Source: Squalus acanthias (taxonomy: Eukaryota). Taken from it: a stretch of DNA of 64,000 bases. Location: positions 37,574,001-37,638,000 of the forward strand of contig CM059432.1 of NCBI GenBank assembly GCA_030390025.1, written 5' to 3'. The position numbers were made by a program, and so were the translations under genes. Below the pieces are notes generated by a model. It was not told where the DNA came from. It ran no database searches and saw only the letters and a list, made by a program, of their open reading frames with translations. This document shows, in pieces, positions 25,893 to 46,904 of this stretch; within the stretch, counting starts at the first letter, position 1; every line of letters begins with the position of its first letter.

Positions 25893-27800
25893 ATGATGGC
25901 AGATCCACGCCCCAGGGAGAGAGCCCACAGATTATTGGACCAAGCATTGGAGGCATTGGTCTTCGCTGTGGAGAGATGGACGGCGGTGCTCTACCCAGCA
26001 AGTGGCAGGAGGCCCTCGCCGCAAGTCTTCCGTGCCATGTGGAGGGAGGTTGCCCAGCATGTCTGGGCAGCACTGTGGTCCCCAGGACCCACACACAGTG
26101 CAGGAAGAAATTTAACGACCTCACTTGGGTGGTCAGGGTGAGTCAATGCTTCAACTAATGCTACATACCACCATCTGAACCACAGTCATCACACACTGCC
26201 CAAAGCACCACACCCCCAGCACTCACCCACCAACAATCTCCACCTACCAACACTCACACCCACATCTCACACCTTGCATACAATGACAGCTATTCAACTA
26301 TGGCAGGCACATCTCCCAAGCACATTGCTCCACACTCACTCACACACTTTTATTTCTCTTGCAGACCAAGGCCGCTCACAACAGGAGGGAGCAGGAGCGC
26401 ACAGGTGGGGGACAAGCTGACACCCAACCACTCTCTGTGCTGGAAAGTAGAGCGCTGGAGATTATTGGGCACCAGGTGGTGGGCGCCGTGGCCACTGGCA
26501 ACGTTGATCCCCTTGGGGACAACAACGGTATGTTCATCCCTACTCCTTCTTCTCACATCCCACTTCCTCCTCACCCCACAAGCCTTTCGCACTTTCCAGC
26601 TAATCATGCTGTATGCATGCATTTCTCCCTTCCTGTCCCCCTCCCCTCACCTTAACCTGACTCTTGTGCCTTTATGCTTTCAGATAATGAACAAGCACCT
26701 GAGCAGCCTGTCCCTGAGGGCACCGTTGAGAGTGAGGCGGGAGAAGAGAAGGAGGAAGAACACACCGCGTCACTGCATGTCTCACCCGCAGACACCAGCT
26801 CAGATACTGGCACTACGCATTCTTTAGAGGCTAGTATAGTAGCGGGAACTGCACAGGGTGATGCATTGGGAATGAACGGGCTGCAGCAAGGCCAGGGGGA
26901 AATTGTAGCTCGGGGGCCAGCTCCCCAGAAGGCAAGTTCGCGCACGAGTTCTGCTGCACAGGACTCAGATGAGGACCTCGATGGGGAGGCCTTTAGAAGA
27001 AGAGTGATGGGCATGCACATGGAGATGATAGGTGCAATGGCAAGGGTGCCCGAGAGCCTCTCGCAATGGTAAGGAGCATGGAGGAGTCCACCTCCAACAT
27101 TGCACAGAGCTCTGCACACACCATGGAGCCAATCATTTGCAGTCTGCAAAGGATGGTCGACTCCCAGAGAGACCATGGCAACCCAGACCTGATGCCGTGT
27201 GTGATGGGCGATTAAGCAGTTTCCATTGCAGCACAGGCGGAAGTGACACAACATCTTAGTGTTGTAATGCAGTCTATGCTTGGTGGCATCCAATCTCAGA
27301 CTGCTCTCATGCAGTCTTAGCTTGATGCCACGCAAGCTCTGACTGCTGCCATCGTGACTGGGTCTACCACCGTCGACCGGGGCTTTCACGGTGTCGCAGC
27401 AGGCCAGCAATCTGTGCTGCAATGGATTGCTAGGGATGCTGTGATGCTGCCCCGGGGGAGTGGAAGTGGGTTGGTGGAGCAGGAACCTGCTGTCCTCTCT
27501 CAGGATGATAGCATTCCTGCTCCCACCCCTGCCACTCCGCCATTGCCCTTGTTGCTGCCTGTCATCCAGCCAGCCCAGACTGCTGCCGCCCATGCTGAGG
27601 TGGTGCAGTCTACAGCCGGGCCTTCCAGGCCCAGAGCTGGTCGAGGGCGTCCTGCAAGGCCATCTGAAGTCTCCCGCACGGACACTCAGCAACCTTGCAC
27701 CAGCCGTGCTGCAGCCACTGGGCCAACACTTCGTAGGAGCACTAGAGTAGGCAAAGGCACAGTAACGAGAGGCATTAAGGAATTGCACAAGGTTGAATAG
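25893..27800 (+). pseudogene. Harbinger Myb/SANT-like DNA-binding protein gene (3 exons: ~25893-26137, 26365-26527, 26684-27800), frameshifted
   Basis: W.EVA...RT..QCRKKFNDL trihelix motif; canonical splice sites; frameshifts and stops. Confidence 0.8.
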
Positions 27801-27965: not shown

Positions 27966-29841
27966 TTATTGGAACCGCAGTCTGATGAGGCGGTCACGGA
28001 CTGTCCTTCCGGAAGGCCAATTGAGTGGCTGCCTCCTCCCTCGCTCCTGATCCTCCTCCTCCTCCTCCTCCTCCTCGTCTTCCGCTTCCTGCTCTTCCTC
28101 CTCGTCCTCCTCCTCGCCCTCTTCCTCCTCCTGAGGTGATCCCTGGTGGCAAGGGCTGGACCCTCATGATGGCCAAATTGTGGAGCATGCAGCAGACGAT
28201 GATGAATTGAGACACCCGTTCAGCCGATTACTGGAGGGCTCCTCCCGAGCGGTCAAGGCAGCGGAACCGTTGCTTGAGCACCCTGATGGTCTGCTCGATG
28301 ATGTTCCTGGTGGTGACATGGCTCTCATTATATGAGTGCTGGGCAGGAGTGTTGGGGTTGTGGATGGGAGTCATGAGCCAGGTGGAGAGCGGATAGCCCT
28401 TGTCTCCGACCAGCCAGCCGCGAGCTTGATGTGGTGGCTGGAAGAGTGCTGGCACTGCGGTCTGGCGCAGGATGAAGGCATCGTGGCTGCTGCCAGGATA
28501 GCGGGCATTCACATTGAGAATTCACTGTGTGTGGTCACACACCAACTGCACATTAAGTGAGTGGTAGCCTTTCCGGTTACGGAAGATGTCAGGATTGTTA
28601 TGCGGTGCCCGCAAAGCCACGTGGGTGCAGTCAATGGCGCCCTGCACCATGGGGAATCTCGCTATCCTGGCAAAGCCACATGCATGCTCGTCCTGCTTCT
28701 CTCTGGTGATGGGGAAGGAAATGTAGTCCCTTCTCCTACTGTAGAGAGCCTCTGTGACCTCCCGAATGCAGCGATGGACGGCGTCTGCGAGATGTGAGCT
28801 ATGTCTCCTGTTGCAGACTGGAAGGAACCGCTGGCGAAAAAATTGAGGGTGACGGTGACCTTGACTGTCACTGAGAGCGCCGTGGTCACCCTGATCTGAG
28901 GCTCGAGGTCTGGTTGCAGGAGGTTGTACGAAAGGCAGATATTTAGTAGACGAGAATCATATATGTATAACTTCAAGTGTAGCCATTGACCAAATAATAT
29001 TACCCATAATTACTCCTGGGTAATTAAAAAGCTAAGACTTATTCAAAATGCAGCTGCAAAGACAGTCAAACAGCGCTGATATGGGCCCTTGGTATAAAGG
29101 CCTTGTACCAGGGAGGCAGGAAATGAAAGAGATAAAGTAAATTCCAATGGGGTGAAAAACTATAAACAAGGCAACAGGAGTGTTGGGGTTGTGGACGGGA
29201 GTCAAAAGCCAGGTGGAGAGCGGAAAGACGGGATGCTACCTTCGTCTGAGTGACAATGGTATTTTGACCATTAGAACCAATTAAAAAAGGTGATTTTGTT
29301 AAAGACCATATATGGACACTGGCCAAACGAACTGTTGATAAGGAATGGGTTAAAACTTCGATATTCAAAGAACAACTTTACATAGACTTACTGCGAGAAC
29401 AAAGGAACAGACTTAAGACGACGTCATCTGTGTCCGAGAGGTTCCAGAGACCAAGGGCTGCGAGCTACTTGTTAAAACTATCGCCTAATATTAAGTATTG
29501 ATTACGCTGTATGCTTAATAAATCTGATCTATAGCTCAAACATACTGGCTGCTGCCTATTGGTGTCTTGTCCAAGAACTCAGAGATCATTAAAGATCTTA
29601 CAAGATGGCAGAGTTCTGTGACCACGTCCTTGCTGAAGCGGAGCCTTCTAATACACTGCTCCTCGCTTAATTGAAGGTAGGAGAAATTCTGTCGGAATAC
29701 CCTGGGAGGGTAAGGCCTCCTGTTGAGAGCCCTGATGGCCCTCCTCCTCCCTCTGGCCTCATGTTCCAATCTTTCTCGCTGCCTCCGCTCTCTCCGCAGT
29801 AGATCCTGGAGGGCGAGGTCGACTGCCAGTACAGCCCCCAT
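27966..29841 (-). pseudogene. Harbinger DDE transposase (HARBI1-like), disrupted and split by an LTR-like insert
   Basis: [58 protein letters not shown]. Confidence 0.9.
28925..29602 (+). mobile_element. Solo LTR-like element (678 bp) carrying a copy of the host Harbinger sequence
   Basis: TGTACGA...TCTTACA termini; imperfect TSD aggt/agat; CCAAT near 29145, TATAAA at 29161, AATAAA near 29517. It splits the codons for ELCH|LLQPDLEP. Confidence 0.8.
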
Positions 29842-34166: not shown

Positions 34167-36252
34167 GGTGGCGATTTTCCAGCCCCGAGGAGGCGGGTTT
34201 GGAGGCGGGACAGTTGGCAAAATCGCAAAAAGTGAGGGTGGGTTTGGAACCTGCCTCCAACCCGCCTCCGCGCAATTTTGCCGGAGGCGGGTTTCATGGG
34301 TGTGATTCGGTCATGCCTCCATCAGTCGGGAGAGGTAGTTAAGACCCTTAAATAGTCGTTAAGGGCCTCTATAATCCTATTTTGACAGGCCTTTGTTATT
34401 TTGCCACATTTTGTGCGTGTTGCACGACCCTCCTAAACCACGCCAGCTAATCCTGGCGGGTTGACAAGTGGGTGGCCTCCTCACAGCTGCAGCTCCACCA
34501 TTAAAACGGAGCTTTCATCAGGGAGTAGTTGCAGGTGGCAGAACTATTGTTCCACAGGTCTTTCAGCACTTTTAGCAGGCCTACAGAAGTCGGAGGTGCT
34601 GCAGCTTCTATCTCTCAACTGTGGGACCTCCTTGGAAGACCCTCTCCCCGTTGGACTGAGCACTTTCCCAACGGAGGTATCTGCCAGCAGCATGGGAACC
34701 ATTTATTTCCTTTCATCATGGACCTCAGATTTGGATGAGGAGCAGCCACGGCAGCAGCAGAATTAGGCAGCTCAGCAGCAGGAGCGCCAACCTCCTGCTC
34801 ACCCACCTGATGCTGCACAGGGCAGAAGGTGCCAGCGTATGGAAGCACATCGCCGCAGGAGATACCCCTCTCCCAGGATTTACAGACAGAGGATGAGCTA
34901 CCTCAACATGAGTGAGCAGCAGTGCCAAAGGAGGCTGAGACTTTCGCGAGAGGTTGTCGGAGACATCTGCACACTGCTGCACCAACACCTGGAGCCCAGA
35001 GGAGTGGGTGGACACCCCTTACCAGTGGCTGTCAAAGTCACCACCGCACTCAACTTTTTTGCCTCAGGCTCCTTCCAGGGATCATCAGCAGACATCAGCG
35101 GCATCTCCCAGTTGGCCGCCACAGTTGCATCACGCAGGTTACTGATGCCCTTTTTGCAAAGGCGTACAATTACATCCACTTCTCAAGGGATCAAGCAAGT
35201 ATAACCGCGCGTTCAGTTGGTTTTGCAAATATGGCAGGCTTGACAATGGTGCAGGGCGTCATAGACTGCACACATGTGGCGCTTAGGGCACCCCATCACA
35301 ACCCAGCTATCTTTGTCAACTGCAAGGGCTTCCACTCCCTCAACGTACAGCTGGTGTGTAACCACAAGAAGGAGATTTTGCATGTTTGCGCCAAGTTCTG
35401 TGGTAGTTGCCATGACTCGTTCATCCTGCGGAACCCTAGTGTTCCTCCGCTCTTCAATCTGCCAAACCAACTTAACGGATGGCTCCTTGGTGACAAGGGC
35501 TATCCCCTGAAGAAGTGGCTAATGCCACCAATCAGGAGGCCAGCTAATGAGGCTGAGGAGCGCTACAACGCCAGCCACATTTCGACCAGGTCCATCATCG
35601 AGCAAACCATTGGCTTGCTGAAGATGCGATTCAGATGCCTTGACAGATCAGGTGGAGCCCTGCAGTATTCAGCAGCCAGGGTCTCCAGAATGGTCATGGT
35701 CTGCTGTTCACTGCACAACATGGCTTGTAGCTTCCTGATGAGCAAGTGGCTCAGTTCATAGCCCCCTCAGATGAGGAGGAGGAGGAGGAGGACTGAGCGG
35801 CGGCATATCTACCAGCAGCAGCGGCAGCACACGAGCACATGGCTGCCCGTGATGCAAGGAATGCACTCATCCTGGCCAGATTTGCATAGGTTGCCCATTG
35901 TGGCACATGTGCTTGGCTCCTTATTAACACATGATAGACAATGGACATGGCTCTCTGGCCTCCTTTCACTCTGACCACCAACCTGACCACGCAAGTGTCA
36001 CGGAGCCCGCAATGTGGAGCTGCCTAAGCCAAAATAACAGATGCCATCACGCCAACAGTTTGCCATCACCTAATTTTAAAACATTCATACAGGGATGGCA
36101 TTTCATCAATAAACAGAAACAATCTCACAATCTGCACACAGATCTGGAGGTTATATCCCTTGCCAGCTGGACCCACACAGGCTTGGTTTCTTTGGGAGGC
36201 CTCTTCCTCCCAGATGAGGGGAAGAGCACCTCCCTGCTAGCTCTCGCCCCCT
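34167..36252. mobile_element. Harbinger transposon B, right end deleted
   Basis: Left end ggtggcgattttcc; transposase 34692-35889 (+, frameshifted) clearly homologous to element C; Myb exon-1 remnant on the minus strand at 36125-36250. Confidence 0.85.
34692..35889 (+). pseudogene. Harbinger DDE transposase pseudogene
   Basis: [20 protein letters not shown] and IEQTIG motifs; frameshifts near 35120 and 35725. Confidence 0.88.
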
Positions 36253-45662: not shown

Positions 45663-46904
45663 ATGGGAGCCATTTATTTCCTTCCCTCCTGGGCATCAGA
45701 TGAGGACGAACACCAGCCGTGGCACCAGCAGAACCATGAACAACAGCAGCACCAACAGCAGGAGCGCCAAGCTGCTGCTCACCCACCTGAAGCTGCACAG
45801 GCCAGAAGGGGCCAGTGCATGGAAGGCCGTCGGCGCAGGTGATACCCCCCAAACAAGGTCTACAGACACAGGGTCAGCTACCTCAACATGTCTGAGCAGC
45901 AGTGCCAAAGGCGGCTCCGACTTTTGCGAGAGGTAGTGGGTGACATCTGCGCAATGCTGCAACAAGACCTGGAGCCCAGAGGACCAGGTGGACACCCCTT
46001 ACCAGTGGCCGTCAAAGTCACCACCGCACTCAACTTTTTTGCTTCAGGCTCATTCCAGGGATCAGCAGCAGACATCAGCGGCATCTCCCAGGCGGCCGCA
46101 CACACCTGCATCACGCAGGTAACCGATGCCCTCTTTGCCATCGCGCACAATCACATCCATTTCACCAAGGATCGAGCAAGTGTCACGGCGCGTGTGGTTG
46201 GATTAGCTAATCTGGCAGGCTTTCCAAGGGTGCAGGGCGTCGTTGACTGCACACATGTGGCCCTTAAGGCACCCCATCGCAATCCAGGTATTTTTGTCAA
46301 CCGCAAGGGCTTCCACTCCCTCAACGTTCAGCTGGTGTATGACCACAAGAAGGAAGTTTTGCATGTTTGTGCCAAGTACCCTGGCAGTTGCCATGACTCC
46401 TTCATACTGCACCAGTCTAGTGTGCCTCCGCTATTCAGTCCGCCAGACCAACTTAACGGATACCTACTTGGAGAGGGCTATCCCCTGAAGACGTGGCTAA
46501 TGACGCCGTTGAGGAGCCCATCCAACGCAGCTGAGGAGAGCTACAACTCCAGCCACATTTCCACCAGAGCCATAGTCGAGCAAAACATCGGTCTGCTGAA
46601 GATGCGCTTCAGATACCTGGATGGATCAGGTGGAGCCCTGCAATACTCAGCAGCCAGGGTCTCCAGAATCGTCGTGGTTTGCTGTGCACTTCACAACATG
46701 GCACAGCGTCGTGGCTTGCAGATGCCGGAGGACCAAGTGGCTGCTCACATATCCTCCTCAGATGAGGAGGAGGAGGAGGTGGAGGAGGAGGAGGAGAGAG
46801 AGAACGAACATCTTGCAGAGGCCCATCAACCAGCGGCAGCATTACGCGAGACCATAGCTGCCCGGAATGCAAGGAACGCACTCATCTTGGCCAGATTTAC
46901 TTAG
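45663..46904 (+). pseudogene. Harbinger transposase, nearly intact (TGA at 45840-45842; 3-nt deletion at the second catalytic Asp)
   Basis: One frame from ATG 45663 through ORF 45888-46904; GVVDCTH and VEQNIG are intact; LLGEGYP replaces LLGDKGYP. Confidence 0.88.

Follow-up and report, generated by a model that had tools for sequence, protein, structure and literature searches.

An LTR inserted in a Harbinger transposase gene of Squalus acanthias carries, shortly after its TATA box, a 50-nt copy of the very transposase that it interrupts. This raises the question of whether the LTR family carries the sequence as an antisense guide or silencing element directed at its host transposon, or whether one LTR copy acquired it in a single templated event. 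We addressed this question in a 64,000-nt stretch of contig CM059432.1 (hereafter the window, whose numbering is used for all plain positions) and among copies of both elements in the 3.7-Gb genome.

The nested LTR and its transposase-derived patch

The host is a broken Harbinger (DDE_Tnp_4) transposase gene on the minus strand (27966–29841; end points set by eye), whose frames match DDE_Tnp_4 and are disrupted by stops, a frameshift and the LTR. This copy is dead, and is ~4.5% diverged from its family (35/775 sites). The LTR splits the transposase between ..VTELCH and LLQPDLE.., and uninterrupted Harbinger copies elsewhere read through the insertion site. The inserted element (28925–29602, plus strand) is a 678-bp solo LTR with TG...CA ends (TGTA at the start, TACA at the end) and the same short U3 form as copy L002; leaving aside the block described below, it shares ~96% identity with its nearest copies. 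It is flanked by a short 4-bp duplication with one mismatch (AGGT at 28921–28924 on the left, one change from the AGAT at 29603–29606 on the right, both given on the plus strand), and empty-site joints were also seen. The promoter-like words reported by the first-pass annotation are all present on the plus strand: a CCAAT box-like word (29144–29148; called from sequence only), a TATA box-like TATAAA (29161–29166) that is conserved across LTR copies, and an AATAAA poly(A) signal-like word (29517–29522).

The surroundings hold further Harbinger-related sequence. Two other transposase frames lie in the window at 34916–35761 (+) and 45843–46904 (+) (DDE_Tnp_4, E 7e-35 and 9e-33, respectively), both with ~65% DNA identity to the host Harbinger family, and the latter is open for 353 codons. 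The host Harbinger has a probable partner gene at ~25893–27800 (+), facing the transposase in convergent orientation; its first exon, recognised by eye, is presumably Myb/SANT-like, and a Pfam search with the frame downstream of that exon returned no match. Read-through from this putative gene would already be antisense to the transposase.

Both a repeat finder and BLAST confirmed the reported match of 29175–29224 to 28344–28393 (47/50 in the same orientation), with the three mismatches at 29196, 29205 and 29206 on the plus strand, and agreed on its extension to 49/53 (29175–29227 versus 28344–28396). The start-to-start spacing of patch and donor is 831 nt, the BLASTN E value within the window is 8e-17, and, apart from the donor, no place in the window matched this LTR by BLASTN. 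The likely donor (28344–28393, minus strand) falls within a DDE_Tnp_4 match (E 1.5e-19), directly follows GDKGY, in line with the position after the GDKG motif first claimed for it, and ends 531 bp from the LTR insertion point, where ~530 bp had been proposed. Read antisense, the host segment gives PLSTWLMTPIHNPNTP and the LTR copy PLSTWLLTPVHNPNTP.

The patch, antisense to the transposase and composed of host-matching pieces of 21, 8 and 18 nt, takes the place of the middle of the family's normal post-TATA block. The window block is 73 nt long; the patch alters block length by 13–14 nt, and its junctions are clean. Judged against the blocks of other copies, the left junction shows an exact CA microhomology (CAGGA in L017), and the right junction an exact GGA, or 5/6 with one mismatch. 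Immediately before the patch, two adjacent bases (29172–29173, +) carry a change private to this copy, which may belong to the same event. Neither patch nor donor forms a hairpin or unusual fold (z −0.07 to −1.18). Judging from TATA spacing, a plus-strand transcript of the LTR would be expected to start inside the patch, and, if it did so ~30 nt past the TATA box, its first ~35 nt at most would be antisense to the transposase.

The post-TATA block across the LTR family

We then investigated whether other LTR copies carry the patch. The left junction has one exact match in the 3.7-Gb genome, and the right junction one match with up to 3 mismatches allowed. A genome search with the LTR yielded 2435 candidates, 40 of which were scored, and the patch was absent from all 29 other top LTR copies; with a 111-nt query, a full-length match was found at the window locus alone among the best 40 of 1152 candidates, the rest being Harbinger copies. 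Copies with exact flanking anchors numbered 419 (76 with a 62–92-nt gap, 342 with 32–61 nt and one with 93–122 nt). Inspection by eye covered 185 of these, including all 76 and 100 of the 342, and Harbinger sequence was seen in no other copy among the 185; the ~234 remaining belong to the 59–61-nt class. The 12 short-gap copies, all listed, are plain deletions, and a one-position test of the 59–61-nt class, which detects only copies with an exact right anchor, gave three matches, of which one was the window copy, one a copy with a point change and one a copy with a deletion. The patch occurs in a single copy and is not a family guide. The first-pass annotation had named the lack of the 50-mer in other copies as the outcome that would point to a local event, and that lack, as observed here, supports its second reading, a one-off templated capture.

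A sequence seen once could also be an assembly or consensus artefact mixing two repeats. The best public read run contains 52% of sampled words, no RNA run is among those listed as containing them, and among the contigs from four read runs no listed piece spans the patch, where depth is ambiguous between LTR and Harbinger. An artefact is nonetheless very unlikely, considering that the patch shows mismatches of its own against all Harbinger copies examined and changes the block length across clean junctions.

The family itself was characterized through four fetched paired copies (L061, L120, L121 and L124) of 5–7 kb, or ~5 kb minus nested insertions, in which LTRs 95–98% alike flank a ~3.7-kb interior. 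These full-length relatives have a TGG-starting primer site, TGGCACCC, after the 5′ LTR, a candidate match to an arginine tRNA, and a purine tract, GAGGTGGGGA, before the 3′ LTR. No pol was found in the interior: four interior frames of L061 had no Pfam match above the cut-off, one frame gave a single weak match in PDB, to a hypothetical protein, and interior frames of at least 150 aa were absent from L061, L120 and L121 and numbered one (153 aa) in L124. Since the interior lacks long frames and recognisable domains, this high-copy, ~5-kb LTR retroelement or ERV-like element appears to be non-autonomous. Short open stretches at L061:3379-4155 (−) resemble gag-like and envelope-like remnants by impression, a likeness that neither Pfam nor PDB supported.

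In all copies, a purine-rich block separates the TATA box from a conserved word further downstream; it is 59–68 nt long in most copies and falls into a few related types. Among the other copies, no part of R/U5 varies more than this block (mean pairwise difference per 20-nt bin of 0.16–0.36, versus 0.03–0.16 elsewhere in R/U5). In a tree built from the rest of the LTR, the block types lie scattered (window 29180–29240; L002–L030 and L063–L092; 54 copies, with 4 dropped for having no LTR end and 2 as duplicates; support values unread), a pattern that suggests frequent recombination near the predicted U3/R border.

Several features of copy number stand apart from this. One block type is concentrated in unplaced contigs (G000:C2671, C625, C3707 and other small ones), where it often occurs as inverted pairs ~4.8 kb apart, an arrangement that looks like a piece of some larger amplified unit. 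Groups of LTR copies (L010, L013, L016, L019 and L008, L009 on G000:C26) have near-identical flanks, indicating amplification by segmental duplication rather than independent insertion. L065 contains an internal U3 duplication.

If the family as a whole carried an antisense guide or a source of small RNAs against Harbinger, traces of it would be expected in where the LTRs insert and in what their blocks match. None of the 69 other fetched copies lies inside this Harbinger family, although L027 has a piece of it ~1.2 kb away, and the other copies occupy varied insertion sites with 4-bp duplications. None of the 69 matches its own 1.1–1.5-kb flanks, and the longest exact block–flank match is 7–10 nt among 27 other delimitable copies. 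The 70-copy flank comparison returned four rows, namely the window copy, the L065 U3 duplication, and two from a mis-set L110 boundary, which were dropped. Standard blocks (13 other variants), compared with 366 kb of masked fetched DNA (~0.01% of the genome), gave nothing clearly above shuffles (scores of 25–32 versus shuffle maxima of 28–35). In favor of a guide, two block types weakly resemble the host segment (types L067 and L065 rank in the top 0.2–0.8% and the top 2% of window tiles, respectively); against it, neither resemblance is ever the best match in the window, and most of the remaining 12 types score as chance would predict. With a single-copy patch as well, a guide of this kind is scarcely credible, and the family-wide guide or silencing cassette first proposed is not supported. 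The related suggestion that other copies carry different cassettes matching their own hosts likewise found no example within the 1.1–1.5-kb flanks, the one comparable donor (that of L125, described below) lying at 3.5 kb.

Origin of the patch

Since no other copy found carries the patch, we regard it as most likely a repair scar rather than an inherited guide. It probably arose once the LTR was in place, when repair synthesis was primed by short homologies and used the nearby Harbinger as its template in cis. The course of events began when the LTR element inserted in the ordinary way, with its 4-bp duplication, into an older copy of Harbinger. The block may then have suffered a lesion, perhaps in the course of the recombination that gave rise to the solo LTR, and the free end would have switched to the neighboring host strand at 2–5 nt of shared sequence. 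From the mismatch pattern, synthesis would have alternated between the host and the LTR block, copying 21, 8 and 18 host bases, before rejoining the LTR at GGA. Polymerase-theta-type end joining and an MMBIR-type template switch are both candidate routes, as the enzyme is not readable from the sequence. Templated insertions are expected to have a template close to the junction, here 831 nt away, and microhomology at both junctions, as found against other copies' blocks. Because the host copy is dead and diverged and the patch is single-copy, the patch has no indicated role, and would be a neutral scar.

The alternation is suggested by the mismatches themselves. The three mismatches recreate ACGG and AAAA, words that occur in that order in the blocks of L002, L020 and L005, so that the patch looks like a patchwork of host bases alternating with the LTR block. 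A random doublet plus a single change equaled this likeness in 0.1–0.4% of 4000 trials, a post hoc P of 0.001–0.004 against three copies of one block type (L002/L020/L005); against three other block types, P was 0.56, 0.20 and 0.96.

We investigated whether the template was the local copy or a distant one. A 30-base context is matched exactly by 274 Harbinger copies, from which the family was extrapolated to ~1100–1750 copies; on this basis, the chance of a donor copy lying within 831 nt is ~0.0005–0.0008, and that of landing inside the Harbinger family is ~0.001–0.002. Capture in trans from any Harbinger copy, followed by chance insertion into a Harbinger, can draw on this large donor family, and some copies fit the patch slightly better than the local one (50/53 versus 49/53). 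What sets those better matches apart is confined to the CpG site or to 29206, and with a ~0.1–0.2% chance of landing in this family we consider such a sequence of events highly improbable.

The CpG site bears on the choice of template in a limited way. At host position 28365 the 274 copies carry G (257), A (12), C (4) or T (1), the sole T being the local host, and the patch has C in a CpG. A unique local T facing a C in the patch fits a history in which the host still had C at the time of copying and lost it to decay afterwards, and CpG decay in the host copy affects 7/40 sites. The argument is weak (likelihood ratio ~2–10) because G>T and G>C are alike across the family (71 and 77 of 5930), and retention of an LTR base would account for the C just as well.

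Two subfamily explanations were also rejected. The conservative M>L and I>V changes prompted a search for a closer Harbinger subfamily, and no copy with the AA variant at 29205–29206 appeared among those listed (0/28 aligned, 0/17 non-G and 0/100 listed G copies; 157 further G-allele copies fall outside the listed set). Nor was any signal shared between the local host and the C-allele copies that would make them one subfamily.

A second capture was found at the same block. L125 (G000:C129:76741-76876, −), a solo LTR with a CACC duplication, is longer by ~48 nt at the 3′ end of the block; the addition consists of a 31-nt foreign piece, a short run of A and a duplication of 13 nt, and the insertion also reuses the block's A-run. 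The foreign piece is 31/31 identical to L126:6257-6287, which lies 3488 nt away, inverted and downstream. This donor lies a short way past the stop of an RT-type reading frame that has a GIY-YIG-like motif at its end, in an element that we take, from its translation, to be Penelope-like; Pfam returned no match for three frames from a related element in the window. The 31-mer has 3309 exact genome copies, giving a chance proximity of ~0.6% if these are evenly spread, and more in repeat-rich contigs.

Side observations concern the same elements: the U3 of L125 also holds ~1 kb of extra sequence, several exact 31-mer matches elsewhere are paired ~3.2 kb apart, and a tandem array of the same Penelope-like element (L128, G000:C15:26577000-26586500; 3209-bp unit, 99.9% identical) directly adjoins a solo LTR of this family.

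Among 71 copies, short foreign pieces with a traceable donor occurred in the block only, and the two captures suggest a capture hotspot there. They are too few to establish one, since both came from block-aimed searches and the 71-copy comparison is small; with the discovery case set aside, the test rests on 1 event in roughly 27 of the 80 kb surveyed, and is not significant. We consider a true capture hotspot at the transcription start, free of any guiding role, to be unlikely.

The position of the block also bears on RNA-level capture in cis, in which a read-through transcript would template a reverse-transcriptase jump at the U3/R border and the cDNA would then convert the parent locus. TATA spacing would place the block at the transcript start and first strand transfer, as this route predicts; the block is the most variable part of R/U5 and both captures lie in or at it, and the window donor is upstream on the same strand. 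The strong-stop region has been viewed as a mutation hotspot, for which our literature search gave no support. Set against these points, the route requires two rare steps, no daughter copy exists, the L125 donor is downstream and inverted, and the start site itself rests on TATA spacing. We judge RNA-level capture to be improbable, and retain post-insertion repair from the local template.

The reverse order of events, capture before integration and then homology-guided insertion near a match to the captured transposon piece, deserves separate weighing because both captured pieces (2/2) lie near a matching donor (chance ~0.0008 and 0.006) and both are antisense to the donor coding strand when read from the LTR promoter. 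Neither patch was amplified, however, the insertion ends are ordinary (TG..CA with 4-bp duplications), offsets and orientations differ (0.5 kb in the same sense versus 3.5 kb inverted), and standard blocks match nothing beyond shuffles in the 366 kb of masked DNA. We know of no sequence-guided integration of an LTR element, and no such system appeared among the papers listed in the literature search. Guided insertion is accordingly rated as very doubtful, as is the broader notion that the block serves as a spacer-acquisition site for 30–50-nt antisense transposon pieces that steer integration to matching neighbors or silence them, to which we give equally little weight.

Comparison with known systems

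As an insertion, the LTR resembles the solo LTRs of LTR retroelements and ERVs in its TG..CA ends and 4-bp duplication, and its relatives have paired LTRs, a primer site and a purine tract; it differs in that pol was not found in the interior of this family, for which ERV and Gypsy are both candidate superfamilies. No LTR carrying an antisense piece of its host DNA transposon emerged among the papers listed in the literature search.

On the reading preferred here, what the locus offers is a clear natural repair patch in the germline that is easy to dissect, with hundreds of unpatched acceptor and donor copies as controls. It also illustrates how a nested LTR promoter can accidentally gain an antisense piece of its host, the raw material for silencing RNAs. 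The significance would be much greater if patched copies were amplified in other species, or if captures at the block proved enriched and pre-integration.

Short-range template switching is the topic of an existing literature (PMC9435742, PMC7954356), and the preferred reading, post-insertion repair in cis, can be compared with several known systems. As reviewed, insertions by polymerase theta take their template from the flanking DNA, need minimal pairing as a primer, frequently form patchworks and usually stay <25 bp (PMC12426944). The patch shares with these TMEJ/MMEJ products a nearby template and, on the preferred reading, few-base priming and a candidate patchwork of small segments (here at most 21 nt each), whereas its 50-nt total and the 831-nt donor distance are large for the typical products described there (PMC12426944).

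Yeast interchromosomal template switching between homeologous genes, as reported in PMC12891019, likewise uses short microhomologies for a jump into a second template and another back out of it. That system needs ~200 bp of 72% homeology (PMC12891019), in contrast to the 53-nt match between LTR and host here, where normal blocks are weakly alike at best. In human cells, the Indel-Seq assay is reported to show that transcription favors insertions at breaks (10.1101/2022.09.30.509517); junction microhomology is common to those insertions and the patch, and a link to promoters and transcription could explain why the block is promoter-proximal. The donors described for that assay lie near induced breaks on other loci, unlike the cis donor observed here.

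MMBIR-type insertions of at least 25 bp are reported among human germline variants, with several switches and microhomology of 2–12 bp (PMC8421209), and templated insertions from nearby sequence have been reported at rearrangement junctions (PMC5120786). The window patch resembles these MMBIR/FoSTeS insertions (MMB-TIs) in being germline, at least 25 bp long and apparently built through several switches, in the use of direct or inverted templates and in the range of microhomology (PMC8421209, PMC5120786). It differs from those described in that one transposon nested in the other supplies acceptor and donor, and in that the patch comes with no larger rearrangement. As read here, the patch is an example of germline templated repair and points to no new system.
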